A program made the position numbers and the translations under genes. A DNA stretch of 41,625 bases from a virus. Taxonomy: Duplodnaviria; Heunggongvirae; Uroviricota; Caudoviricetes. Each line of letters opens with the position of its first letter. The first letter of the stretch is position 1. Shown here one piece after another: positions 1-40,115 of the stretch. The notes beneath the pieces are model-generated. The model ran no database searches, was not told where the DNA came from, and saw only the letters and a program-made list of their open reading frames with translations. The stretch lies in IMG/VR virus record IMGVR_UViG_2529293039_000011, one strand, 5' to 3'.

Positions 1-1074
1 TCATTTGTCGATTTCAATTTTGTCCCATTCCCGTCCACGGCTGTCCCTATACCGCGCCGCCATTGAATCTGATTTATGCCCGAGAAGACGTTGAGCAAAC
101 TTATCGCCAATCTGGTTCCGGTATAGCCTCGCTGACAGGCTACGCAGTTCATGGAATGTTGGCGGGTTTCCATCAAATGAGAGGCCAGATGCATTTCTCG
201 CCTTTGTAAAATACTTTGATACTGTTTTCGGGGAAAGCGGATCGTGATGCTTTGATGCGATTATAGTTTCACTGCTGCTGGCCTCCCTGCATTTCTGTAG
301 TGTATCAGCCAATGAGATATTGAGCGCGTCAATCGTTAGCGTTAGCGGAATGGCGAGTTTAGCCCCTGTTTTACTCTGTTTAATGTGAAGATGGTTGTCG
401 TTTATGTCTGACCATTTCATTCTGCACAAATCGCCGACTCTCTGCCCTGTAACGACGGCCAAATCCATCGCCAGCCTTAGCCAGATAGGGAGAGGTTCGG
501 CTGCATGGTAAATCTCGACATACTCATTAGCTGTCAGCCTTGAGCGCCTTACTTCTGACTTTGCTGTACGGGTTGCTGTTACCGGATTCGTTGCCACATG
601 CCCCTCGGCTATTGCTTCACGAAAAACGTCAACAAGGGTTGACCTGATTAATTTTGCGGAAGCTGCTTTACCTTCTGCTACGTAGGTGTTTAGCATTGCT
701 GCCACTTCTTTCGTTGATATGTCAGTGAGCGGTTTGTCCGGCAATTTTCTTCGGATTGCCCTGATTTTGCTGGCGTAGTCGAGTAGAGTTTTCGGCCTGA
801 TCCCCCTTTCGGTGAGGATTGTTTCATATCGGTCAAGCCACACATGAAGAGTGATTGCGTCACCGCCTTTAATTCTGTCTATCAGTGATTTGCGTCCGCT
901 GTCTGAGAGTAACTCAATATTGGCCTGTATTGCTTCAGTGATTGCTATCCTCCTGTCTCGGCCTAATCCAAACTCTTTACCCGTCCTTGGGTCCCTGTAG
1001 CAGTAATATCCATTGTTTCTTATATAAAGGTTAGGGGGTAAATCCCGGCGCTCATGACTTCGCCTTCTTCCCAT
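1..1074 (-). CDS. int: Lambda-type tyrosine integrase (357 aa); its stop codon is the first three bases of the window
   Basis: Full-length ORF; protein MGRRRSHERRDLPPNLYIRNNGYYCYRDP... matches my recollection of lambda Int along its length, ending ...RGREWDKIEIDK. Confidence 0.95.
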   Translation of the reverse strand: MGRRRSHERRDLPPNLYIRNNGYYCYRDPRTGKEFGLGRDRRIAITEAIQANIELLSDSGRKSLIDRIKGGDAITLHVWLDRYETILTERGIRPKTLLDYASKIRAIRRKLPDKPLTDISTKEVAAMLNTYVAEGKAASAKLIRSTLVDVFREAIAEGHVATNPVTATRTAKSEVRRSRLTANEYVEIYHAAEPLPIWLRLAMDLAVVTGQRVGDLCRMKWSDINDNHLHIKQSKTGAKLAIPLTLTIDALNISLADTLQKCREASSSETIIASKHHDPLSPKTVSKYFTKARNASGLSFDGNPPTFHELRSLSARLYRNQIGDKFAQRLLGHKSDSMAARYRDSRGREWDKIEIDK

Positions 1075-1270
1075 TTCTGATCCTCTTCAAAAGGCTACCT
1101 GTTACTGGTCGATTTAAGTCAACCTTTACCGCTGATTCGTGGAACAGATACTCTCTTCCATCCTTAACCGGAGGAGGGAATATCCTGCACTCGCGTACCC
1201 ATCGACGAACTGTTTCAAGGCTTCTTGGGCGTCGCTGGCGTGCGTTCCACTCCTGAAGTGTCAAGTACAT
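1052..1270 (-). CDS. xis: Excisionase (72 aa), 3' end overlaps int start
   Basis: Protein MYLTLQEWNARQRRPRSLETVRRWVRECRIFPPPVKDGREYLFHESAVKVDLNRP... is essentially lambda Xis; int/xis overlap as in lambda. Confidence 0.93.
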   Translation of the reverse strand: MYLTLQEWNARQRRPRSLETVRRWVRECRIFPPPVKDGREYLFHESAVKVDLNRPVTGSLLKRIRNGKKAKS

Positions 1271-1292
1271 CGCAAAGTCTCCGCAATTACAC

Positions 1293-1320
1293 GCAAGAAA
1301 AAACCGCCATCAGGCGGCTT
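1293..1320 (-). terminator. Candidate intrinsic terminator downstream of the small ORF 1310..1477
   Basis: Minus-strand reading gives GCCGCC-TGAT-GGCGG hairpin followed by TTTTTTCTT. Confidence 0.35.
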
Positions 1321-1477
1321 GGTGTTCTTTCAGTTCTTCAATTCGAATATTGGTTACGTCTGCATGTGCTATCTGTGCCCATATCATCCAGTGGTCATAG
1401 CAGTCGTTGATGTTCTCTGCTTCGATAACTCTGTTGAATGGCTCTCCATTCCATTCACCTGTGACTCGGAAGTGCAT
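1310..1477 (-). CDS. Small hypothetical protein (55 aa), not in the ORF track (below size cutoff)
   Basis: ATG preceded by GGAG Shine-Dalgarno (GGAGATGATAAATG); translates to MHFRVTGEWNGEPFNRVIEAENINDCYDHWMIWAQIAHADVTNIRIEELKEHQAA; fills the xis-ea8.5 gap on the same strand. Confidence 0.45.
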   Translation of the reverse strand: MHFRVTGEWNGEPFNRVIEAENINDCYDHWMIWAQIAHADVTNIRIEELKEHQAA

Positions 1478-1565
1478 TTATCATCTCCATAAAACAAAAC
1501 TCGCCGTAGCGAGTTCAGATAAAATAAATCCCCGCGAGTGCGAGGATTGTTATGTAATATTGGGT

Positions 1566-1847
1566 TTAATCATCTATATGTTTTGTACAGAGAGGGCAAG
1601 TATCGTTTCCACCGTACTCGTGATAATAATTTTGCACGGTATCAGTCATTTCTCGCACATTGCAGAATGGGGATTTGTCTTCATTAGACTTATAAACCTT
1701 CATGGAATATTTGTATGCCGACTCTATATCTATACCTTCATCTACATAAACACCTTCGTGATGTCTGCATGGAGACAAGACACCGGATCTGCACAACATT
1801 GATAACGCCCAATCTTTTTGCTCAGACTCTAACTCATTGATACTCAT
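1566..1847 (-). CDS. Ea8.5-like early protein (93 aa)
   Basis: Protein MSINELESEQKDWALSMLCRSGVLSPCRHHEGVYVDEGID... matches my recollection of lambda Ea8.5; Cys/His-rich. Confidence 0.8.
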   Translation of the reverse strand: MSINELESEQKDWALSMLCRSGVLSPCRHHEGVYVDEGIDIESAYKYSMKVYKSNEDKSPFCNVREMTDTVQNYYHEYGGNDTCPLCTKHIDD

Positions 1848-2714
1848 TTATAAACTCCTTGCAATGTATGTCGTTTCAGCTAAACGGTATCAGCAATGTT
1901 TATGTAAAGAAACAGTAAGATAATACTCAACCCGATGTTTGAGTACGGCCATCATCTGACACTACAGACTCTGGCATCGCTGTGAAGACGACGCGAAATT
2001 CAGCATTTTCACAAGCGTTATCTTTTACAAACCCGTATTCCTGCTCATATCACTCTCCTTTGATGCGAATGCCAGCGGCGCGGATAGATTTCCATTGTTC
2101 CCATATGCGGTTGAAGTCTGTTCCTGATAAGGTCGCGTTACGGTATCCAGTTTCGGTGCGCAATCCTTCAAGCGTCGATTTGGAAATACAAATTGAATGC
2201 ATTACCCATGATTCGAACAAATCACGCTCCCGGGCTTCGCAACTTTGCTTACTCATCTCTTCGATACGTTCAGCCATCGCAGCACACTCTTCAAAGTTAC
2301 TTAATGCTTTTCGCTCCCATTCGGCGCATTGTTTTCCAAGCTCTGCAATCAGCTTGTCTTTGCCTTCCAGCTCAACTCGCAGCTTCCCTACCGTTAGCGC
2401 AATATCCTCGTTCTCCTGATCACGGCTTTTGATGTATTGCTGGTTTCTTTCCCGTTCATCCAGCAGCGCCAGCACGGTAGCTGGACTGGCTGCGGCGATG
2501 AATTCAGCATTGGCCTGCTGTTCCATTTGGAAATCTTCATCGAAACCGCTTTCAGGATGCGCTCCTTCAATTCTGCAAATGGGAATATATCCAGCAGCCT
2601 CGCGATGAATTAGCGCATCATCACAATCAAATCGGCTCTCTCCATATTCGAGCGACCATACACCACACGTTGCTTTTTCTGCCTTGGCACGCAGTGCCTC
2701 ATAGTCAATCTTGC

Positions 2715-5233
<2,519 letters not shown>

Positions 5234-5718: not shown

Positions 5719-6225
5719 TTAAATTGCGTGAATAGCGTGACGAGGGAAGGGGAGAGTTACTGGTGCAAAGGGTATATCGTCGTCAAAATCCATCGGAGGT
5801 TCGTTGTGTTGTGCTGGTGATGATTGCTGCTGTGGCTTCTGTGATTGCCTGCTGGCTGCTTGTTGTTTGCTGTCGCCAATGCCGCCAAGCATTTGCATCA
5901 CGCCATTAATTCCGACATGAACCTCGGTTGTGTAACGGTCTTGCCCTGACTGGTCTTTCCACTTTCTGGTTCTCAGCATTCCCTCGAAATAAATCTGATC
6001 ACCTTTTTTCACATACTGCCCCACGACCTCAGCCAGTTTCCCGGATACAGCAACACGATGCCATTCAGTCAATTCCTTTTGCTCGCCAGTATTTTTATCT
6101 CGCCATTGTTCTGACGTGGCTATTGTCAGGTTAGCGAACGCTGTTCCTGATGGTGAGTATCGAACTTCCGGGTCTTGTCCTACCCGACCAAGGATAATCA
6201 CCTTATTTACGCCTCTGCTTGCCAT
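5719..6225 (-). CDS. ssb: Single-stranded DNA-binding protein (168 aa) with unusual 15-aa extension after the DDDIPF tip
   Basis: OB-fold N-terminus [44 protein letters not shown]..., Gln/Pro-rich linker and [11 protein letters not shown] motif; ORF continues [15 protein letters not shown]. Confidence 0.9.
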
Positions 6226-6933
6226 TTATGCTGCCTGTTTTAGTTCGTTAACTCTGATGTTCATTACCTGAACACATTTAGCCTGCGCCTCCTCGTTGCC
6301 AGCCATTAATTGCCAGTCACGCTGATAACGCTCGATGAGTTTTTTCTTGTCAGTTTCTGTCGCTGCATAATCGCTGAAGTCTTTCAGGATTTGTTCGCAG
6401 TCAACCGATGGAGATTTCTGGTTGGTATTTTCTGGTGATGGTTTGTTATCTGATGCTGGGATTGCCCATCCCGGCAGTGATGGAGGTAGCCAGTAAAATC
6501 CTGTTCCATCCTTCAGTTTTGCCCTGTGCCACCCCTGCTTTTTATCGAGAGATGTTTGTGCGAAACCTTCCTCAAGGTTATACAGATACCGACCGATTCC
6601 CCACTGAACGGCAGCGCGCTTCATTGCACCGGAACGACCGCCTTTGACAGCTTCTACCTGCGTGTTTTCAGCAGCATCCCATTTGGTTACCCATTCGGAA
6701 TCAATCCTGATTGATATGCCGCATTCAACGCCGCCGTTGTTGGGAATATCGCGGTATTCATTGCGCCATCCTGCTTTGCCGCAAACATCGTCCAGACGTT
6801 TCATGATTGCCCGGTTCGTGACATAAGCCAGCACCATAGCCCACACCTTGCCATCGCGTGTTTTACCGCTTTGCTGTATTCGCCATTCGATATCTTCAGG
6901 GCTGAATGGCTCATCGAATTTGTTCAAATCCAT
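6226..6933 (-). CDS. Rad52/Rad22-family single-strand annealing protein (235 aa)
   Basis: Conserved blocks KVWAMVLAYVTNRAIMKRLDDVCGKAGW and MKRAAVQWGIGRYLY typical of phage Rad52-like annealases; occupies the exo/bet slot. Confidence 0.75.
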   Translation of the reverse strand: MDLNKFDEPFSPEDIEWRIQQSGKTRDGKVWAMVLAYVTNRAIMKRLDDVCGKAGWRNEYRDIPNNGGVECGISIRIDSEWVTKWDAAENTQVEAVKGGRSGAMKRAAVQWGIGRYLYNLEEGFAQTSLDKKQGWHRAKLKDGTGFYWLPPSLPGWAIPASDNKPSPENTNQKSPSVDCEQILKDFSDYAATETDKKKLIERYQRDWQLMAGNEEAQAKCVQVMNIRVNELKQAA

Positions 6934-7032
6934 AATTCACCTCAGAATGGACACGGCCCAAGGAAATAACGCTGATTTAATACTTCGACTCGGGACAAAT
7001 TAAGGCATACCCGCATTCCTTCGCGGTCGCCA

Positions 7033-7191
7033 TTATGGCGATACCAGAGAGCTTTCTGCGTGTACATGCGTCTCTGTAACTTGCTCTCCTTTACTGTGGT
7101 TGCAAGTGACATGAATATCTCCTTCGTTACCGATTAATTCTTTCATCTGACGAATGAATTCTTCGTCTGAGCAGTTATCTGTAAAACTCAT
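7033..7191 (-). CDS. Small hypothetical protein (52 aa) in the gam position, coupled to kil
   Basis: ATG overlaps kil stop (ATGA); translates MSFTDNCSDEEFIRQMKELIGNEGDIHVTCNHSKGEQVTETHVHAESSLVSP; an alternative overlapping 56-aa frame 6943..7112 with a GGAG site also exists. Confidence 0.35.
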   Translation of the reverse strand: MSFTDNCSDEEFIRQMKELIGNEGDIHVTCNHSKGEQVTETHVHAESSLVSP

Positions 7192-7339
7192 TTCCTGCGA
7201 TACCACGGAAGGTTGATAGCTGATTTCATCGCTTTATTTGCTTCAAGCCACATTTTGGAATCACCAATAAATCTGGCTATTACTGCTTTGTTCTGTGCAG
7301 CACGAAGCATCTGGTGATTGATGGCTATTTCATTGCGCA
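7188..7339 (-). CDS. kil: Kil-like host-killing protein (50 aa)
   Basis: Translates MRNEIAINHQMLRAAQNKAVIARFIGDSKMWLEANKAMKSAINLPWYRRK; the IARFIGDSKMWLEA block resembles lambda Kil IATFIGDEKMFREA; below track size cutoff. Confidence 0.55.
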
Positions 7340-7459
7340 TAACGCCTCCAGTTGTTTCTTTGCTGCTCTGATTAATTGTTTAACTCGGCGTGATAATTCA
7401 GATTCGTGCGGGTAGAAAGCGGACATGACGCCGCTACCCGCGAGCTGAAAGTGCATCAT
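7325..7459 (-). CDS. cIII: cIII-like protein (about 45 aa); the track ORF 7325..7534 extends further upstream
   Basis: Start chosen at ATGATG preceded by AAGGAG; MMHFQLAGSGVMSAFYPHESELSRRVKQLIRAAKK resembles lambda cIII in its AG..GV...ESxL..R pattern. Confidence 0.55.
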   Translation of the reverse strand: MMHFQLAGSGVMSAFYPHESELSRRVKQLIRAAKKQLEALCAMK

Positions 7460-7534
7460 GGGTAACTCCTTATATTTGATTGCATAACGAAAACGCCTCG
7501 AGTGAAGCGTTATTGGTATGCGGTAAAGCCGCAC

Positions 7535-7903
7535 TCAGGCGGCCTTGATAGTCATATCATCTGAATCAAATATTCCTGATGTATCGATATCGGTAATTCT
7601 TATTCCTTCACTACCATCCATTGGAGGCCATCCTTCCTGACCATTTCCATCATCCCAGTCGAACTCACAAACAACACCATATGCATTTAAGTCTTTCGAA
7701 ATTGCTATAAGCAGAGCATGTTGCGCCAGCATGATTAATACAGCATTTAATACAGAGCCGTGTTTATTGAGTCGGTATTCAGAGTCTGACCAGAAATTAT
7801 TAATCTGGTGAAGTTTTTCCTCTGTCATTACGTCATGGTCGATTTCAATTTCTATTGATGCTTTCCAGTCGTAATCAATGATGTATTTTTTGATGTTTGA
7901 CAT
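7535..7903 (-). CDS. Ea10-like early protein (122 aa)
   Basis: Protein MSNIKKYIIDYDWKASIEIEIDHDVMTEEKLHQINNFWSDSEYRLNKHGSVLNAVL... matches my recollection of lambda Ea10. Confidence 0.85.
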   Translation of the reverse strand: MSNIKKYIIDYDWKASIEIEIDHDVMTEEKLHQINNFWSDSEYRLNKHGSVLNAVLIMLAQHALLIAISKDLNAYGVVCEFDWDDGNGQEGWPPMDGSEGIRITDIDTSGIFDSDDMTIKAA

Positions 7904-7921
7904 CTATTCATATCCTCATAG

Positions 7922-7950
7922 ATAAAAAATCGCCCTCACATTAGAGGGCA
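7922..7950 (-). terminator. Candidate intrinsic terminator downstream of the 156-aa gene in the pL operon
   Basis: Minus-strand hairpin GCCCTC-TAATGT-GAGGGC followed by GATTTTTTATC. Confidence 0.4.
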
Positions 7951-8053
7951 AAGAAGATTTCCAATAATCAGAACAAGTCGGCTCCTGTTTAGTTACGAGC
8001 GACATTGCTCCGTGTATTCACTCGTTGGAATGAATACACAGTGCTTATTCGTA

Positions 8054-8524
8054 CTAATAAAACACCCAATTTTCTGTTTCTTGGTTGTGTCCAAAGTTAT
8101 ATTCAATATCTGGTGTTGATGTATCAATATTCTTCATCCCATCAACAAGAGTTGATACAACAGCCAAATCTTGTTTGATTCTCATCAAATGGTATTTCTT
8201 TCGGCGCAATAAACTTTCAATGGCAAGTTTCTTCGTCGGGAATGCAAAAGATCTTTCTGCATTTTTTGCTACTTTCTTAATTGCATATCTATTTCTCCTT
8301 TGTTTCCATTCCTGTAACCACTGATTTGGTGCTGGTTTAAAATTAACAATCCAATGCGCAGGAACCAACCATGCATAATGCTCTGTCTGATGAAAAGCTA
8401 TATATTGAAGTGCGAATATTTTGATCCCATCTTCTTCAACTGTCGCCTGGAATCTCCAGAAAACAGGCATTCCATCATGTTCAGTTTCTGATTCAGGAAA
8501 AGGTACGCTCCATGATTTTGTCAT
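8054..8524 (-). CDS. Hypothetical protein (156 aa) in the ral/sieB slot between N and ea10
   Basis: Clean ORF with GAGGTG site upstream of the ATG; soluble, basic, Trp-rich; no family recognised. Confidence 0.6.
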   Translation of the reverse strand: MTKSWSVPFPESETEHDGMPVFWRFQATVEEDGIKIFALQYIAFHQTEHYAWLVPAHWIVNFKPAPNQWLQEWKQRRNRYAIKKVAKNAERSFAFPTKKLAIESLLRRKKYHLMRIKQDLAVVSTLVDGMKNIDTSTPDIEYNFGHNQETENWVFY

Positions 8525-13580: not shown

Positions 13581-13613
13581 AGGCCTGCTGGTAATCGCAG
13601 GCCTTTTTATTTG
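13581..13613 (+). terminator. Intrinsic terminator after ren (tR2 position)
   Basis: Hairpin AGGCCTGC-TGGTAATC-GCAGGCCT followed by TTTTTATTT. Confidence 0.6.
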
Positions 13614-13627
13614 GGGGAGAGTAAATC

Positions 13628-13954
13628 GTGGCTGACTGGCAAATACCAATCATCATTCTTGCCGGAGCTTCGCTGGTTGCTGGCTTTATCCTGCTGAAGA
13701 AGCATAAAGACCGTGATCAAAAAGTCGAAGTTCTCTATGGGTATCCGGCGAACAGCACAACATGGCTGACTATTTACCACTACCGAAAATCAGGCCGTTG
13801 GGTATTCGAATGGGATGATCTGTTTGCTGAAAAGCGACCAAAGTCATGGGGAGACATCAGCGAATGCATGATGTTTGAAGAAAGAAAATCCGGCGCAACC
13901 CGAGAAGAGTTTAACGAAGCGTGGAGGCGATTAAGTGAGAGGGGGTATCAATGA
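13628..13954 (+). CDS. Hypothetical membrane-anchored protein (108 aa), GTG start
   Basis: GTG preceded by GGGGGAGAG; N-terminal hydrophobic segment IPIIILAGASLVAGFILL followed by a charged soluble domain. Confidence 0.55.
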   Translation: MADWQIPIIILAGASLVAGFILLKKHKDRDQKVEVLYGYPANSTTWLTIYHYRKSGRWVFEWDDLFAEKRPKSWGDISECMMFEERKSGATREEFNEAWRRLSERGYQ

Positions 13955-13976: not shown

Positions 13977-14423
13977 ATGAAGCAAATATACATGCTTCGC
14001 AACGAAGCAATCAGAAACAACGCCATAGACGCAATACTCTCACTTCCGATCGACGACAAGTCACCTCACGAAGTCCACATTAAAGAACCCAGGCGGAGCA
14101 ATCCTCAAAACCGCCTTATGTGGGCGTTATTGCAGGACGTATCACGTCAGGTGCTTTGGCATGGAAAGAGACTTGCGCCGGAGGACTGGAAAGATCTGTT
14201 CACTGCCCTGTGGCTTAAGACCAAAAAACTGGAGCAACGAAGTGCGCCTGGTATCGACGGTGGCGTTGTCATGCTTGGCGTGCGTACCAGCAAAATGCGA
14301 AAGGCCAGCATGACTGAGCTTATCGAAATCATGTTCTGGTTCGGCTCAGAGCGCAACGTGCGGTGGAGTGATGACTCCCGGCGAGAGTATGAATGGTCAC
14401 AACGAAAAGGTAGGGCTGCATGA
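13977..14423 (+). CDS. ninB: NinB (Orf family recombination protein, 148 aa)
   Basis: Conserved NinB blocks NPQNRLMWALLQDVSRQVLWHGKRL and RNVRWSDDSRREYEW, as recalled from lambda NinB. Confidence 0.85.
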   Translation: MKQIYMLRNEAIRNNAIDAILSLPIDDKSPHEVHIKEPRRSNPQNRLMWALLQDVSRQVLWHGKRLAPEDWKDLFTALWLKTKKLEQRSAPGIDGGVVMLGVRTSKMRKASMTELIEIMFWFGSERNVRWSDDSRREYEWSQRKGRAA

Positions 14424-14947
14424 CTATCAAATCAAATACGCCAGCACACGACAAGGACTGCTGGCAAACGCCGCTTTGGCTTTTTGATGCACTGGATATT
14501 GAGTTTGGATTCTGGCTGGATTCGGCAGCGAGCGACAAAAATGCTCTGTGCGCTCACTGGCTAACTGAGGCTGACGACGCGCTAAATTCTGAGTGGGTAA
14601 GCCACGGTGCAATCTGGAATAACCCACCGTACAGCAATATCAGGCCGTGGGTGGAAAAAGCCGCTGAGCAGTGTATACAACAACGACAGACGGTAGTGAT
14701 GCTTGTGCCAGAGGATATGTCAGTCGGATGGTTCAGCAAGGCTCTGGAGAGTGTCGACGAAGTTCGTATTATCACTGATGGACGGATTAATTTTGTCGAA
14801 CCATCGACAGGACTGGAGAAGAAGGGAAACAGCAAAGGTTCCATGCTGCTGATTTGGCGACCGTTCATCAGTTCTCGACGGATGTTTACTACTGTATCCA
14901 AAGCGGCATTGATGGCGATCGGGCAGGGCGTCAGGAGGGCAGCATGA
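14420..14947 (+). CDS. Phage DNA N6-adenine methyltransferase (175 aa)
   Basis: Catalytic NPPY motif (IWNNPPYS) and N-terminal DCWQTP block typical of the phage Dam-like family. Confidence 0.85.
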
Positions 14948-15126
14948 GACGACAGCGACGAAGTTTCACCGACATCATCTGCGAAAACTGCAAATACCTT
15001 CCAACGAAACGCTACAGAAATAAACGCAAGCCAATCCCAAAAGAATCTGACGTAAAAACCTTCAACTACACGGCTCACCTGTGGGATATCCGGTGGCTAA
15101 GACATTGTGCGAGGAAAACAAGGTGA
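14944..15126 (+). CDS. ninE: NinE (60 aa; track ORF 14854..15126 starts earlier)
   Basis: [52 protein letters not shown] matches my recollection of lambda NinE; start overlaps methylase stop. Confidence 0.7.
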
Positions 15127-17660: not shown

Positions 17661-18419
17661 ATGAGTTGTAAGCCAATGTTATCATCTTGTATTGGGGTGG
17701 TTATGAAGGATGGTGCACTGCTCAGGAGTTCTTCACTTTTTATTGCCTACATGGGATGCCTTGGATGGGGGAGTGCTTATTTCTATGGATGGGGTACTTC
17801 TTTTTACTACGGCTTCCCATGGTGGATTGTAGGTGCAGGTGTTGATGATGTTGCCAGAAGTTTATTTTTTGCAGTTATCGTCATTGCTATATTTCTTATC
17901 GGTTGGGGTATTGGTGTTGTATTCTTTTTCGCAGTGAAAAGAAAACATTCTATGCAAGAGCTAAATGTATTTCGCCTTTATTTTGCTGTGGAATTATTGT
18001 TTGTGCCGGCAATTATTGAGTTTTCTATATTGAGACAGAAGATTCAGGTACCTCTTTTGCTACTGTCAGCAGCGATTGCGCTGGCGGTTACAATTTCGAT
18101 AAGATCTTATGGGCGATTTTTATCGGTATCATGCTTCTATGATAAGCCATTTATAAAAAAACATTTTTTTGAGATTGTGATGATTGCTTTTGTGGCATAT
18201 TTCTGGTTTTTTTCATTTCTGACAGGATATTACAAACCGCAGTTTAAGAAAGAATATGAAATGATTAATTATAATGATGGTTGGTATTATGTTCTTGCTC
18301 GTTATGATAATTGTCTGGTTTTGTCTACTTCTTTCAATGCAGGTAGTAAAAGGTTTGTCATTTATCAATCAGCACAAGATAAGAATCTTCAGGTTGATAT
18401 TGTAAGGACCAGAATTTAA
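17661..18419 (+). CDS. Polytopic membrane protein of unknown function (252 aa from 17661; about 238 aa if started at 17703)
   Basis: Several hydrophobic helices plus a roughly 60-aa C-terminal soluble tail; candidate promoter TTGACG, 17 bp, TTATGA upstream; GGGGTGG site before the internal ATG; visibly AT-rich. Confidence 0.6.
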   Translation: MSCKPMLSSCIGVVMKDGALLRSSSLFIAYMGCLGWGSAYFYGWGTSFYYGFPWWIVGAGVDDVARSLFFAVIVIAIFLIGWGIGVVFFFAVKRKHSMQELNVFRLYFAVELLFVPAIIEFSILRQKIQVPLLLLSAAIALAVTISIRSYGRFLSVSCFYDKPFIKKHFFEIVMIAFVAYFWFFSFLTGYYKPQFKKEYEMINYNDGWYYVLARYDNCLVLSTSFNAGSKRFVIYQSAQDKNLQVDIVRTRI

Positions 18420-18849
18420 TTGGCTGCATAAATAATATTTTAAGTTGCAAGTTGGCTATTCGTAGGAATAGAACCTTAGGCATGCTGAATGCGTTTTCTG
18501 AACATTGTTTTATAAACTGTGTCTGCTTGCTGTTGTGATCCTGCTTTTAGTGATGGTGATGATGGATTTCACCAGCAGGATAATGTTGGTACTGACTGAT
18601 GGCGCTCTGGTCTGCGGCATTGTGGTATTGCTGTGGCCGATGATGAAAAAACAGAATGAATAATCCTTGACTTTTTTGTTTACTGTTTATTAAAAAATCA
18701 ACCGCATGGTGAATCCTCCTTGGAGGGGCTAAATGATCGAGTTTTAAGGGCACGTAGCGAGTTCTGTTTGATCATTGCAGAACTTAGCGGGAGGCGCCAT
18801 GCGTACATCACTAATGTTATTTCCTTCTATCATTTTCCTTGTGAGTTCT

Positions 18850-18876
18850 GGCTGCGCATGGCGCGGCCTTTTTTTT
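18850..18876 (+). terminator. Intrinsic terminator downstream of the membrane-protein moron
   Basis: Hairpin GGCTGCGC-ATG-GCGCGGCC followed by TTTTTTTT. Confidence 0.5.
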
Positions 18877-19284
18877 ATGACCTGCCACTGGCAGATGGTC
18901 ATCCTGTGATTTGATTCCGGTTCCGGCTTTTTAACTCTGTTCCTGTACACGGGAGAAATTCTATGTCGATTAATCGTTATGATATTGGTTACAAGAAGTA
19001 CCACGTATTGTGTTGAGATAGAAAGCATGGTGCCAGAGGTAAATGCAGCAGCATAATAAAAAAGAGCCAGCGCAGAAGAGAACGGGTAAAAGAGTCTGCG
19101 CTGGCGTGGGGATATTCCCCGTGGAGAAATGATATGTAACACACATCGGGAACCTTTCTATATAAACATTATCATTATTGTCAATCATAACAGTCAGGTA
19201 TTATGACGTTTATGCATCAGGGCCATCAGGAATTAACTGGTGGCTTTTTATTGTTGTCAGCTTCCGGATAACGGGAGACGGGGT

Positions 19285-19500
19285 ATGTACCAGATGGAAA
19301 AAATAACAACAGGTGTGTCATACACCACGTCAGCGGTGGGGACGGGATACTGGCTACTGCAGTTGCTGGACAAAGTCTCCCCATCCCAGTGGGTGGCAAT
19401 AGGCGTATTGGGTAGCCTGGTGTTTGGCTTGCTGACGTATCTGACAAACCTTTATTTCAAGATTAAAGAAGATAAGCGTAAGGCTGCGAGAGGTGAATAA
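19285..19500 (+). CDS. S: Class II pinholin, phage 21 S-type (71 aa, dual-start MYQM; track ORF begins at 19240)
   Basis: [66 protein letters not shown] matches my recollection of S21/EssD-type holins; GGGAGACGGGG site upstream. Confidence 0.85.
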
Positions 19501-30952: not shown

Positions 30953-31290
30953 CGCGGGAAATGCAGTTTGTCATGCGGCTTGCCCGGGAGTTCCGGCGGG
31001 CAGACTGGCGGCGGATGCTGTCGGAAATGTCGGCCACTGAGCTTGGTGAGTGGGGCGATTATTTCCGGATGCAGAGCTTCAGTGATGTGTGGATGGATGC
31101 GCAGTTTGCCTCGCTGAAGGCATTGATCGTGAGAATGGTGTCCGGCAGCAGTGATGCTGCGGTGGCTGATTTCAGCCTTTTACCGGAAGAGAACGGGATA
31201 CCGGAGCGAACGGACGAAGAACTGATGCATCTTGGGGAAGGTATTTCCGGAGGTGTGCGTTATGGACCAGATAGCCAACCTGGTCATTGA
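30928..31290 (+). CDS. T: T-frame segment, probably expressed as a G-T fusion by -1 ribosomal frameshift near the end of G
   Basis: The -1 frame is open from 30928 through the G stop and continues to 31290; candidate slip site CCGGAAAAG at 30938..30946. Confidence 0.55.
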   Translation, partial: GADAGKVLTREMQFVMRLAREFRRADWRRMLSEMSATELGEWGDYFRMQSFSDVWMDAQFASLKALIVRMVSGSSDAAVADFSLLPEENGIPERTDEELMHLGEGISGGVRYGPDSQPGH

Positions 31291-34200
31291 TTTGGGGATT
31301 GATGCGGCAGAGTTTAAAAATGAAATCCCCCGTATCAAAAACCTTCTGAATGGTGCAGCCAGCGATGCAGAACGGTCTTCTGCCCGTATGCAGCGTTTTA
31401 TGGAGCGTCAGACTCAGGCCGCCCGGCAGACAACGCAGGCGGCTTCTTCGGCTGCAACAGCCGCATCCGTCCATGCGCAGACGGTGGAGAAGAACGCACA
31501 GGCTCATGAACGCATGGCCCGCGAGGTGGAGAAAACCCGCCAGCGCATGGAGGCGCTGAGCCAGAAAATGCGCGAGGAACAGGCGCAGGCCATGGCTCTG
31601 GCGGAGGCTCAGGATAAAGCGGCTGCTGCGTTTTATCGTCAGATTGACAGTGTGAAACAGGCCAGTGCGGGGCTGCAGGAATTACAGCGTATTCAGCAGC
31701 AGATCCGACAGGCCAGAAACAGTGGCGGGATTGGTCAGCAGGATTATCTGGCGCTGATTTCTGAGGTTACGGCGAAAACCCGTGTTCTTACACAGGCTGA
31801 GGAAGAGGGTACCCGACAGAAAGTGGCGTTTATCCGTCAGCTTAAAGAGCAGGCAACCCGCCAGAATCTTTCATCTTCTGAGTTGCTTCGTGCTAAGGCT
31901 GCCCAGCTGGGGGTAAGCAGTGCTGCAGAAGTGTATATCCGCAAAATGGAGCAGGCAGGAAAAGCCACGCATTCGCTGGGTCTGAAAAGTGCAGCGGCCC
32001 GCCAGGAGATAGGCGTTCTGATAGGTGAACTGGCCCGCGGCAATTTAGGGGCGCTGAGGGGATCCGGGATAACGCTGGCTAACCGTGCCGGATGGATAGA
32101 CACACTGATGTCACCGAAAGGCATGATGCTGGGCGGGGTTATTGGCGGTATTGCCGCAGCTGTCTATGGTCTGGGTAAAGCCTGGTATGACGGTCAGAAG
32201 GAGGGGGAAGAATTTAACCGCCAGCTGTCGCTGACGGGGCATTATGCCGGAGTCACTGCCGGGCAGCTGTGGACGCTCAGTCGTGCTATTTCCGGGAATG
32301 GTATCACGCAACATGCTGCAGCCGGTGCGCTGGCTCAGGTGGTGGGGAGTGGTGCATTTCGTGGAAACGATATCGGTATGGTGGCGAGAGCTGCCGCACA
32401 GATGGAGCGATCGGTTGGCCAGTCGGTCAGCGATACCATAAGTCAGTTTAAGCGGCTGAAGGATGATCCTGTAAATGCCGCGAAGGCTCTGGACAATGAG
32501 CTGCATTTTCTTACTGCCACTCAGCTTGAGCAGATACGCGTCCTTGGGGAACAGGGGCGGTCCAGTGATGCGGCACGGATAGCCATGTCTGCACTGGCAG
32601 AGGAAACCGGTCGGCGTACTGCGGATATTGATAATAACCTCAATGCGCTGGGCAGTACGCTGAAGTATCTGTCTGATTTATGGAGTCGTTTCTGGGATGC
32701 GGCCATGAATATTGGTCGTGAAGACTCGCTGGATGAACAGATTTCCGCTTTACAGGAGAAAGTGTCGCGGGCGAAAAGACTCCCCTGGACGGCATCATCT
32801 TCTCAGGTTGAGTACGATCAGCAGCGTCTTAACGAGCTTCAGGAAAAAAACGCCAGAAGGATTTGCAGGATGCAAAAGAGCAGGCAGAGCGGAATTATCA
32901 GGAGCAACAGAAACGCCGTAATGCTGAAAATGCTGCACTGAACCGGATGAATGAAACGGAAGCAGCACGACATCAGCGTGAAATTGCGCGTATTAATGCC
33001 ATGCAGTACGCCGATCAGACTGTCAGGGATGCGGCGATACAACGTGAAAATGAACGTTACGAGAAAGCCCTGGCATCCGGTAAGAAAAAAACACGCGAAA
33101 CCCGTAATGATGAGGCCACCCGGTTATTGCTGCAGTACAGTCAGCAACAGGCACAGGTGGAAGGACAGATTGCTGCTGCCAGACAGTCAGCAGGCATTGC
33201 CACGGAAAGGATGACAGAAGCGCATAAACAGCTTCTGGCTCTGCAGCAGCGCATCAGCGACCTGGACGGGAAAAAACTGACGGCAGATGAAAAGAGTGTG
33301 CTGGCCCGTAAAGATGAACTGATTCAGGCACTGACGCTGCTGGATGTAAAACAGCAGGAGCTTCAGAAACAGACGGCACTCAACGAGCTGAAGAAAAAAA
33401 CAATTCAGCTGACCAGTCAACTGGCTGAAGAAGAGCGTGCTCAGCGTCAACAACATAATCTGGATATCGCCACGGTGGGTATGGGTGATCAGCAGCGGCA
33501 GCGATATCAGGTACAACTGAGTCTTCGTCAGAAATACCAGCAACAGCTGGAGCAGTTGAGGCGGGATAGTGAGCAGAAAGGGACATATAACACGGATGAC
33601 TACAGAAAGGCCGAGCAGGCGCTGACGGAGAGCCTGAACCGACAACTGAATGAGAATCGCCGTTACTGGCAACAGCTTGAAATTGCTCAGGGTAACTGGA
33701 AAAACGGAGTCCTGCGTGCACTCCAGAATGTCACTGAGAATGCGGATAACACAGCCTGGACAGTGGAACAGTTGTTCACGTCTGCGTTCAGTAGCATGAG
33801 TGACTGGCTGGCGACATTCTGTACTACAGGCAAACTCAATTTCAAATCTTTTACTTCTTCTGTGCTGTCAGATATGTCCAGAATCATGGCTCAGATAGCT
33901 TTAATGAAAGCGGTAAAAGGCATTGCTTCCGCGCTGCCTTTTGATTTTGTAGCCAATGCTGATGGCGGTGTTTATCAGTCGGCTGATTTGAGTCGCTACA
34001 GTGGCACGGTGGTTAACCGTCCGACGTTTTTTGCTTTTGCAAAAGGCGCGGGTGTGATGGGGGAAGCGGGACCTGAAGCCATTCTGCCATTGCGTCGTGG
34101 TGCTGACGGTAAGCTGGGGGGGGTGGCGGATATTGGGGGTTCAGGTATGGCGATGTTTTCCCCGCAGTACAACATCGAGATCAATAACGATGGCACGAAC

Positions 34201-34317
34201 GGGCAGATAGGTCCGGCTGCCCTGAAGGCGGTTTATGACCTCGGGAAAAAAGCGGCAGCGGACTTTATGCAACAGCAGGCCCGTGATGGTGGTCGGTTAA
34301 GTGGAGCATATCGGTAA
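31262..34317 (+). pseudogene. H: Tail tape-measure protein H, interrupted by a 1-nt frameshift at an A7 run (track ORFs 31232..32941 and 32863..34317)
   Basis: N-terminus MDQIANLVIDLGIDAAEF and C-terminus INNDGTNGQIGPAALKAVYD... parallel my recollection of lambda gpH; the span is 3056 nt, not a multiple of 3. Confidence 0.8.
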
Positions 34318-36701: not shown

Positions 36702-39700
36702 ATGGGTAAAGGCAGCAGTAAGGGGCATACCCCGCGCGAAGCGAAGGACAACCTCAAATCCACGCAGTTGCTGAGTGTGATTGATGCCATCAGCGAAGGG
36801 CCGATTGAAGGTCCGGTGGATGGATTAAAAAGCGTGCTGCTGAACAGTACGCCGGTGCTGGACAGTGAAGGTAATACCAACATCTCCGGTGTCACGGTGG
36901 TGTTCCGGGCCGGTGAGCAGGAGCAGACACCGCCGGAGGGATTTGAATCCTCCGGCTCTGAGACGGTGCTGGGTACGGAAGTGAAATACGACACGCCGAT
37001 CACCCGCACCATCACGTCGGCAAACATCGATCGTCTGCGCTTTACTTTCGGTGTGCAGGCACTGGTGGAAACCACCTCAAAGGGGGACCGGAATCCGTCG
37101 GAAGTCCGCCTGCTGGTTCAGATACAGCGTAACGGTGGCTGGGTGACGGAAAAAGACATCACCATTAAAGGCAAAACCACCTCACAGTATCTGGCATCGG
37201 TGGTGGTGGGTAACCTGCCGCCGCGCCCGTTCAATATCCGGATGCGCAGGATGACGCCGGACAGCACCACAGACCAGCTGCAGAACAAAACGCTCTGGTC
37301 GTCATACACCGAAATCATCGATGTGAAACAGTGCTACCCGAACACGGCACTGGTCGGCGTACAGGTGGATTCGGAGCAGTTCGGCAGCCAGCAGGTGAGC
37401 CGTAATTATCATCTGCGCGGGCGTATTCTGCAGGTGCCGTCGAACTATAACCCGCAGACGCGGCAATACAGCGGTATCTGGGACGGAACGTTTAAGCCAG
37501 CATACAGCAATAACATGGCCTGGTGTCTGTGGGATATGCTGACCCATCCACGCTACGGCATGGGGAAACGTCTTGGTGCGGCGGATGTGGACAAATGGGC
37601 GCTGTATGTCATCGGCCAGTACTGCGACCAGTCAGTGCCGGACGGCTTTGGCGGCACGGAGCCGCGCATCACCTGTAATGCGTACCTGACCACACAGCGC
37701 AAGGCGTGGGATGTGCTCAGTGATTTCTGCTCGGCGATGCGCTGTATGCCGGTATGGAACGGGCAGACGCTGACGTTCGTGCAGGACCGACCGTCGGATA
37801 AGGTGTGGACCTATAACCGCAGTAATGTGGTGATGCCGGATGATGGCGCGCCGTTCCGCTACAGCTTCAGCGCCCTGAAAGACCGCCATAATGCCGTTGA
37901 GGTGAACTGGATTGACCCGAACAACGGCTGGGAGACGGCGACAGAGCTTGTGGAGGATACGCAGGCCATTGCCCGTTACGGTCGTAACGTCACGAAGATG
38001 GATGCTTTTGGCTGTACCAGCCGGGGGCAGGCACACCGCGCCGGGCTGTGGCTGATTAAAACAGAACTGCTGGAAACGCAGACCGTGGACTTCAGCGTGG
38101 GCGCAGAAGGGCTTCGCCATGTGCCGGGCGATGTCATTGAAATCTGTGATGATGACTATGCCGGTATCAGCATCGGCGGGCGCGTGCTGGCGGTAAACAG
38201 CCAGACCCGGACGCTGACGCTCGACCGTGAAATCACGCTGCCATCCTCCGGTACCACGCTGATAAGCCAGGTTGACGGAAGTGGCAATCCGGTCAGCGTG
38301 GAGGTCCAGTCCGTCACCGACGGCGTGAAGGTAAAAGTGAGCCGTGTTCCTGACGGCGTTGCCGGATACAGCGTGTGGGGGCTGAAGCTGCCGACGCTGC
38401 GCCAGCGCCTGTTCCGCTGCGTGAGTATCCGTGAGAACGACGACGGCACGTATGCCATCACCGCCGTGCAGCATGTACCGGAAAAAGAAGCCATCGTGGA
38501 TAACGGGGCGCACTTTGACGGCGACCAGAGCGGCACGGTGAATGGTGTCACGCCGCCAGCGGTGCAGCACCTGACTGCCGAAGTCACCGCAGACAGCGGG
38601 GAGTATCAGGTACTGGCCCGCTGGGATACGCCGAAGGTGGTGAAGGGCGTGAGTTTCATGCTTCGCCTGACCGTGGCAGCGGATGACGGCAGTGAGCGGC
38701 TGGTCAGCACAGCCCGGACGGCGGAAACCACATACCGCTTCACACAACTGGCGCTGGGGAACTACAGGCTGACAGTCCGGGCAGTAAATGCGTGGGGGCA
38801 GCAGGGCGATCCGGCATCGGTATCGTTCCGGATTGCCGCACCGGCAGCGCCGTCGCGGATTGAGCTGACGCCGGGTTATTTTCAGATCACCGCCACGCCG
38901 CATCTTGCGGTTTATGATCCGACGGTACAGTTTGAGTTCTGGTTTTCGGAAAAGCGGATTACCGATATCAGGCAGGTTGAAACCAGCGCGCGCTATCTTG
39001 GCACGGGGATGTACTGGATAGCCGCCAGTATCAATATCAAACCGGGCCATGATTATTACTTTTATATCCGCAGTGTGAACACCGTTGGCAAATCGGCATT
39101 CGTGGAGGCTGTCGGTCAGGCGAGCGATGATGCGGAAGGTTACCTGGATTTTTTCAAAGGCCAGATAACCGAATCCCATCTCGGCAAGGAGCTGCTGGAA
39201 AAAGTCGAGCTGACGGAGGATAACGCCAGCAAACTGGAGGAGTTTTCGAAAGAGTGGCAGGACGCTAACGATAAGTGGAATGCCATGTGGGGCGTCAAAA
39301 TTGAGCAGACCAAAGACGGCAAACATTATGTCGCGGGTATTGGCCTCAGCATGGAGGACACGGAAGAAGGCAAGCTGAGCCAGTTTCTGGTTGCCGCTAA
39401 CCGTATCGCGTTTATTGACCCGGCAAACGGGAATGAAACGCCGATGTTTGTGGCGCAGGGCAATCAGATATTTATGAACGACGTGTTCCTGAAGCGCCTG
39501 ACGGCCCCGACCATTACCAGTGGTGGAAATCCACCGGCATTTTCCCTGACATCAGACGGAAAGCTGACCGCTAAAAATGCGGATATCAGTGGCAGAGTGA
39601 ATGCGAACGCCGGGACGCTCAACAATGTCACGGTAAATGAAAACTGTACGATTAAGGGCATGCTGGAGGCGACTCAGGTCAGAGGTGACTTCGTTAAAGC

Positions 39701-40115
39701 TGTATCCAAATCATTTCCGAAACAGGCTGGTACGTGGGGTAACACGGAAACACCAAACGGGACGGTTACAGTCACCATCAGCGATGATCATAACTTTGAC
39801 CGTCAAATCATTATTCCGCCCATTATCTTTAACGGAATAGCGTATAGCTATCCGGGAAGTGGTAATAACCCGGGAGGTACAAGATACACGGGTTATGGTT
39901 TTGAAGTTCGCAAAAACGGTGTATTAATCGCATCCAGAGAAACTAAAGGGGCCATTCCCGGTAGCTACAGTGCGGTTATTGATATGCCGAGTGGCAGGGG
40001 AAGCGTCACTCTGGAGTTTAAGGTTTTCCATAAAGGCAATCAGTGGGCAGGTAATATCACCGACTGTACGGTGATTGTGACCAAAAAAGCCGCTTCCGGC
40101 ATCAGTATTCGTTGA
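36702..40115 (+). CDS. J: Central tail fiber / host specificity protein J (1137 aa) with a divergent C-terminal receptor-binding region
   Basis: First roughly 980 residues match my recollection of lambda J; the last roughly 150 residues diverge. Confidence 0.92.

Follow-up and report, generated by a model that had tools for sequence, protein, structure and literature searches.

The Dam enzymes of phage T1 and of Haemophilus phage HP1 are solitary phage methyltransferases whose GATC specificity has been shown by experiment. VT-2 and HP1 are named among the phages with Dam-like proteins (PMC7556043), and M.EcoVT2Dam, from the Stx2 phage VT2-Sakai, "is known to target 5'-GATC-3'" according to PMC6602927, which credits Radlinska & Bujnicki 2001; the same paper gives GATC specificity to M.EcoVT2Dam homologues that are 99% identical. 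A gene of this group lies on the + strand at positions 14420-14947 of IMG/VR record IMGVR_UViG_2529293039_000011, a 41,625-nucleotide stretch of Caudoviricetes DNA, which we refer to as the window. It is very likely that this gene encodes a solitary phage S-adenosylmethionine (SAM)-dependent DNA N6-adenine methyltransferase of the T1/HP1/VT2 Dam family, which acts on GATC like host Dam though it is not a close relative of that enzyme, and which likely supplements it.

The closest described enzyme is M.EcoVT2Dam itself. The product of VT2-Sakai orf32 (M.EcoVT2Dam, NP_050531.1) and the window protein are of equal length and identical in 173/175 amino acids, and the order ninB-methyltransferase-ninE is the same in both phages, although M.EcoVT2Dam is carried by a Stx2 phage and the window gene by a non-Stx lambdoid prophage beside torS in an enteropathogenic Escherichia coli (EPEC)-type genome. 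The two proteins differ by V126 for I and S152 for P, both of them at positions that vary in the family; in an alignment of 47 homologues (A3), from which all conservation counts given here are taken, the V126 residue is present in 11 sequences and the S152 residue in 4. A preliminary description of this stretch had called the target site of the enzyme unknown, which is wrong because the protein is nearly identical to one with a reported GATC target (PMC6602927). On the basis of the 99% identity and the published statement, the window protein is predicted to introduce N6-methyladenine (m6A) at GATC.

T1 Dam (YP_003925.1; 32% identity, E 3e-26) and HP1 Dam (NP_043482.1; 37% identity, E 2e-32) belong to the same PF05869/TIGR01712 family and are likewise solitary. 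These two proteins and the window protein have in common the DxWxTP, LDxAA, NPPYS and DxSxxWF elements and the R, F, T, G, N and K residues of a predicted hairpin. T1 Dam differs in having ~45 additional residues at its N-terminus and an insertion of 14 residues, and the genomic context differs as well, T1 being a lytic phage and HP1 a P2-like phage.

Profile searches place the window protein in this family, with matches that cover three curated profiles from end to end. The match to PF05869, "DNA N-6-adenine-methyltransferase (Dam)", has an E value of 5.3e-64 and 215 bits (gathering score, 28.1 bits) and spans positions 1-167 of the 169 in the profile. That to the NCBIfam equivalog TIGR01712, "phage N-6-adenine-methyltransferase", has 263.6 bits (cutoff, 97.05 bits) and spans positions 1-165 of 165. 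The third match is to phrog_111, "DNA methyltransferase" (E 4e-87). No Pfam family besides PF05869 was found, the E. coli/T4 Dam family (PF02086, MethyltransfD12) and MT-A70 both being absent. As the preliminary description had proposed, the protein thus belongs to the phage-type N6-adenine methyltransferases and has the NPPY motif (residues 68-71). Its membership of the family is seen directly, and the motifs are intact:

14456-14473, + strand: motif DxWxTP (D13-C-W15-Q-T17-P18); D13, W15, T17 and P18 do not vary between this protein and T1 or HP1 Dam and are found in 45-47 of the 47 homologues
14516-14530, + strand: LDSAA (L33-D34-S-A36-A37), where predicted strand beta-1 (31-36) ends; L33, D34 and A37 are likewise unchanged in T1 and HP1 Dam, and D34 and A36 are found in 47/47
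14621-14632, + strand: catalytic motif IV (N68-P-P-Y71), after predicted strand 64-68; present without change in 47/47 homologues, T1 Dam and HP1 Dam
14780-14839, + strand: residues 121-140, a predicted hairpin/loop; R122, F125, T130, G131, N137 and K139 also occur in T1 and HP1 Dam

Taken over the two N-terminal motifs, residues D13, W15, T17, P18, L33, D34 and A37 are conserved in 42-47 of the 47 sequences. The DxWxTP element resembles motif X of amino-methyltransferases and has a putative role in cofactor binding, while LDSAA is a putative motif-I-like SAM-binding loop. In the mechanism that we propose, LDxAA would act as the cofactor loop and NPPY would hold the flipped-out adenine.

An AlphaFold2 model built with the 47 homologues (predicted local distance difference test score (pLDDT) 89.1, predicted template modeling score (pTM) 0.87) consists of a single compact alpha/beta methyltransferase domain and has the class I SAM-dependent methyltransferase fold. 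Its strands comprise residues 31-36, leading into the LDSAA loop, 64-68, leading into NPPY, 92-97, 114-119 and 141-146, and a helix forms the C-terminus. Among the internal parts of the model, confidence is lowest in the hairpin at 121-140 (block pLDDT 76-86). A sequence search of the PDB returned matches at chance level only (E 0.25 and 0.74), so that no solved relative was identified by sequence. By fold, the nearest solved structures are those of CAPAM/PCIF1 and of gamma-class enzymes, M.TaqI among them, the similarity to CAPAM/PCIF1 being just marginally above that to DNA methyltransferases. CAPAM/PCIF1, M.TaqI and M.BseCI are 13-17% identical to the window protein and have 380-540 residues with large separate substrate-recognition domains, unlike the 175 amino acids found here. 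The hairpin at residues 121-140 is a candidate for a minimal DNA-recognition element; it probably reads GATC, replacing the separate recognition domain.

The gene sits in the nin region, and its boundaries and those of its neighbors are as follows, with the overlaps and Shine-Dalgarno-like sites read from the letters themselves:

13977-14423, + strand: ninB/orf recombination mediator, the upstream neighbor (PF05772, E 4e-48; phrog_72)
14407-14415, + strand: Shine-Dalgarno-like AAGGTAGGG, ending 4 nucleotides 5' of the methyltransferase ATG
14420-14423, + strand: ATGA overlap of the methyltransferase ATG (14420-14422) with the ninB TGA (14421-14423)
14420-14947, + strand: coding sequence of the orphan phage N6-adenine DNA methyltransferase, 175 amino acids, an open reading frame (ORF) with an ATG start, a TGA stop and the profile matches given above
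14933-14939, + strand: Shine-Dalgarno-like AGGAGGG before the ninE start
14944-14947, + strand: ATGA overlap of the ninE ATG (14944-14946) with the methyltransferase TGA (14945-14947)
14944-15126, + strand: ninE, the downstream neighbor, of unknown function (PF05322, E 7e-41)

The position between ninB and ninE, and the coupling on both sides in the form of a stop/start overlap at each junction, are therefore as first described. This coupling is not special to the methyltransferase, because ATGA junctions are a general trait of lambdoid nin regions (PMC8022706) and the pattern recurs in the same window at P/ren, DUF1364/rusA and rusA/next ORF. The neighbors of the gene are NinB, NinE, NinF and an Ant-type antirepressor. 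Neither strand carries a neighboring nuclease partner, the antisense ORFs that overlap the gene are without support, and the RefSeq annotation of the whole prophage contains neither an endonuclease partner nor a second methyltransferase. The enzyme is therefore an orphan, as had been claimed, and the pair of a methyltransferase and an endonuclease of the same specificity that makes up a type II restriction-modification system is not present.

Two other groups of adenine methyltransferases invite comparison. E. coli Dam and T4 Dam (alpha-class, PF02086) show no detectable family match with the window protein and differ from it in motif order and in the recognition domain; the GATC specificity common to these enzymes and the window enzyme is convergence and not family membership. 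The MT-A70-type enzymes M.EcoGV and M.EcoPA8orf6770P resemble the window enzyme as orphan adenine methyltransferases of lambdoid/Stx prophages annotated as GATC-specific. However, they carry DPPW, are encoded near the integrase end, need the partner PNB-2 and prefer 16S rRNA, and none of these features is found in the window enzyme. M.EcoPA8orf6770P in particular is a Stx-prophage enzyme that was annotated as a GATC DNA methyltransferase and that prefers 16S rRNA when partner-bound (PMC10810198). We considered whether the window gene is this 16S rRNA methyltransferase gene and rejected the identity: the published gene is of the MT-A70/DPPW type, lies near the integrase and works with PNB-2, a winged-helix partner, whereas the window protein has NPPY, no MT-A70 Pfam match, and ninB and ninE as its flanks. 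Since it is a different gene, M.EcoPA8orf6770P is no evidence on the window protein.

The timing of expression is suggested by what lies upstream of the nin genes:

13581-13604, + strand: intrinsic-terminator-like hairpin and T-run between ren and the nin genes, found by a terminator scan (a stem of 8 bp, 6 of them GC pairs, then TTTTATTT)

The hairpin (AGGCCTGC...GCAGGCCT, then the T-run) is strong and is at what we take to be the position of lambda tR2. Such a tR2-like terminator suggests delayed-early lytic expression of the methyltransferase and implies that expression of the nin region depends on antitermination. Since the gene belongs to the nin block of the early-right operon and follows this terminator, the enzyme would be made only after induction or infection and not in the lysogen. 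A search for a dedicated promoter gave a single sigma-70-like match (14745-14772), which is within chance (9 sites in the region vs 12.5 +/- 3 expected). Lytic-only expression also fits the lysogen methylomes, in which the activity of homologues was inseparable from that of host Dam (PMC6602927).

As for the job of the enzyme, the virion DNA of P22 and lambda is under-methylated at Dam sites, replication outrunning host Dam (PMC8022706). Because phage virion DNA is under-methylated by host Dam, topping up GATC methylation is the most economical role. The enzyme would supplement limiting host Dam so that fast-replicating phage DNA becomes fully GATC-methylated, and full methylation would guard it from methylation-sensitive enzymes that restrict at GATC and from MutH-type processing, which acts on unmethylated or hemimethylated DNA. 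We infer the role, the expression timing and the recognition hairpin from the comparisons made above.

Several points weigh against this reading. PMC7556043 describes the function of phage Dam enzymes as 'still not well understood'. The host already methylates GATC, and the supplementary role of the phage enzyme is a proposal. The GATC specificity of the window protein is deduced from secondary citations together with near-identity, and the inseparability from host Dam in lysogen methylomes noted above (PMC6602927) applies to the homologues on which that deduction draws. GATC is also depleted in the prophage: the whole window has 129 sites vs 179 +/- 12 expected from dinucleotide shuffles, and the second-order Markov observed/expected ratio of 0.62 puts GATC among the more depleted 4-base palindromes. 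GATC enrichment, which we sought as a sign of a special target region, was not found in the window, the site being depleted instead; the window as a whole tends to be poor in 4-base palindromes, and the low GATC count fits that trend. GATC-free tracts of ~2 kb occur at 5997-8250, 18770-20911 and 37029-38808, one of which spans the lysis cassette. Finally, the tail tape-measure gene is broken into a pair of overlapping ORFs in the window (31232-32941 and 32863-34317, + strand) and is annotated by RefSeq as frameshifted in E. coli O127:H6 E2348/69, so tail assembly may be defective in this prophage, and this copy of the methyltransferase may be expressed rarely or never in a productive cycle.

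The alternative that survives best, though we regard it as unlikely, assigns the enzyme the main task of shielding phage DNA, whether incoming or progeny, from the restriction endonucleases of the host. Anti-restriction is a common class for orphan phage methyltransferases and is the subject of DefenseFinder calls in enterohemorrhagic E. coli (EHEC) phages (PMC12502783), MboI-type cleavage is blocked by m6A at GATC (PMC7556043), and expression with the early lytic genes, as predicted from the upstream terminator, would suit such a task. However, GATC is the host Dam site, and protection would therefore extend only to GATC-cutting, methylation-sensitive enzymes. E. coli hosts are Dam+, and enzymes that cut unmethylated GATC cannot normally coexist with them; the gain over host Dam is confined to the under-methylated fraction of sites, and full GATC methylation would sensitize the DNA to DpnI-type methyl-dependent enzymes. 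The poorly understood function of phage Dam enzymes (PMC7556043) counts against this role as well. Protection by the window enzyme is thus plausible but limited by the Dam+ host.

The prophage itself bears on the next alternative. The window is a lambdoid prophage beside torS and is essentially identical to its counterpart in E2348/69 (NC_011601, ~1,041,555-1,083,179), from which it differs by a few single-nucleotide polymorphisms, single-base indels and ~300 bp within J. This J-type tail-tip gene is a single intact ORF of 1137 amino acids in the window (36702-40115, +); in NC_011601 it is annotated as frameshifted and is ~300 bp longer, which indicates that the window stems from another assembly or a close relative. 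The torS sensor kinase gene forms the left end of the window (1-1868, -), is frameshifted per the E2348/69 annotation, and is directly adjoined by the prophage integrase (1963-3036). Upstream of ninB, the ORF in the ninA position (13628-13954, +; 108 amino acids) has no Pfam match, a full-length match to phrog_5903 (unknown function), and an N-terminus that is hydrophobic in appearance. Three ORFs annotated as hypothetical lie between the Q antiterminator and the holin, at the site of stx in Stx phages, and may be moron cargo:

17661-18419, + strand: ORF of 252 amino acids with a multi-pass membrane look, judged by eye from the sequence
18505-18663, + strand: small DUF3927 ORF
18744-19142, - strand: ORF of 132 amino acids

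The split tape-measure gene raises the question of whether the methyltransferase is a silent relic, intact in appearance, never expressed and without present function in a defective prophage. Along with the tape-measure gene, the terminator upstream would be consistent with this, as it implies no expression in the lysogen. However, the reading frame, all of the motifs and both coupling junctions are intact, and identical or near-identical copies are present in the functional phages HK140 and mEp043 and in Stx phages. We consider a relic improbable, and it would concern the use of the gene in this one prophage and not its identity.

A specificity other or broader than GATC, arising through the two substitutions or from a family more relaxed than reported, is much less probable still. 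Small changes do retarget some methyltransferases (PMC6602927 discussion), and non-specific prophage adenine methyltransferases exist, namely M.EcoGI/GII (PMC6602927 table) and the OS31 methyltransferase (PMC7556043). Against this, only 2/175 residues differ from M.EcoVT2Dam, both at variable positions and both as variants seen in other family members, the homologues of M.EcoVT2Dam are GATC-specific in PMC6602927, and the lysogen methylome in that paper has no unexplained adenine motif attributable to them. A literature search for a methylome of E2348/69 found nothing. With 2/175 substitutions at variable sites, a changed specificity is very unlikely from the sequence comparison. Least credible is that the enzyme really methylates RNA, as suggested by the mis-annotation shown for another prophage adenine methyltransferase, M.EcoPA8orf6770P (PMC10810198), and by the mRNA cap N6,2'-O-dimethyladenosine (m6Am) methyltransferase CAPAM/PCIF1 as the closest solved fold, since the precedent is a different gene (MT-A70, DPPW, integrase end, PNB-2), the window protein has NPPY and PF05869 only, and GATC DNA methylation is reported for M.EcoVT2Dam (PMC6602927).

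The solitary GATC methyltransferase that we favor is neither new nor rare. The window protein is identical over 175/175 amino acids to WP_000153283.1, and RefSeq names the E2348/69 gene "phage N-6-adenine-methyltransferase". The gene is carried, with 95-99% nucleotide identity, by 244 phage records; HK140, mEp043 and a large number of Stx1/Stx2 phages are among them, and these copies are nearly always flanked by NinB and NinE. Intact copies at 95-100% nucleotide identity are found in 1540 of 5426 complete E. coli genomes (~28%), with up to five copies per genome, and homologues down to ~60% identity extend across the Enterobacterales. The E2348/69 chromosome (NC_011601) itself has a second copy of the gene elsewhere, presumably in another lambdoid prophage. 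The window gene is therefore an already known, already annotated and very widespread orphan phage GATC adenine methyltransferase, and it carries little weight as a discovery, given its RefSeq annotation, the curated Pfam and NCBIfam families, and a 99%-identical enzyme with reported specificity.

There is also a slim chance, based on gene linkage and fold similarity, that the nin-region Dam is not redundant with host Dam or has a second substrate. If so, full GATC methylation of replicating phage DNA, and possibly of host DNA, in the lytic cycle could disable the MutH-dependent mismatch processing that recombination intermediates undergo, and NinB/Orf, the coupled neighbor, would work together with the nin-region Dam in this effect. 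Dam-sensitive regulatory sites for the lysis-lysogeny decision or for prophage stability could likewise be reset. Alternatively, the enzyme could act on a second, non-GATC or non-duplex substrate, which is hinted at by CAPAM/PCIF1 being its nearest structural neighbor. The minimal size of 175 amino acids makes the mode of GATC reading a point of interest.
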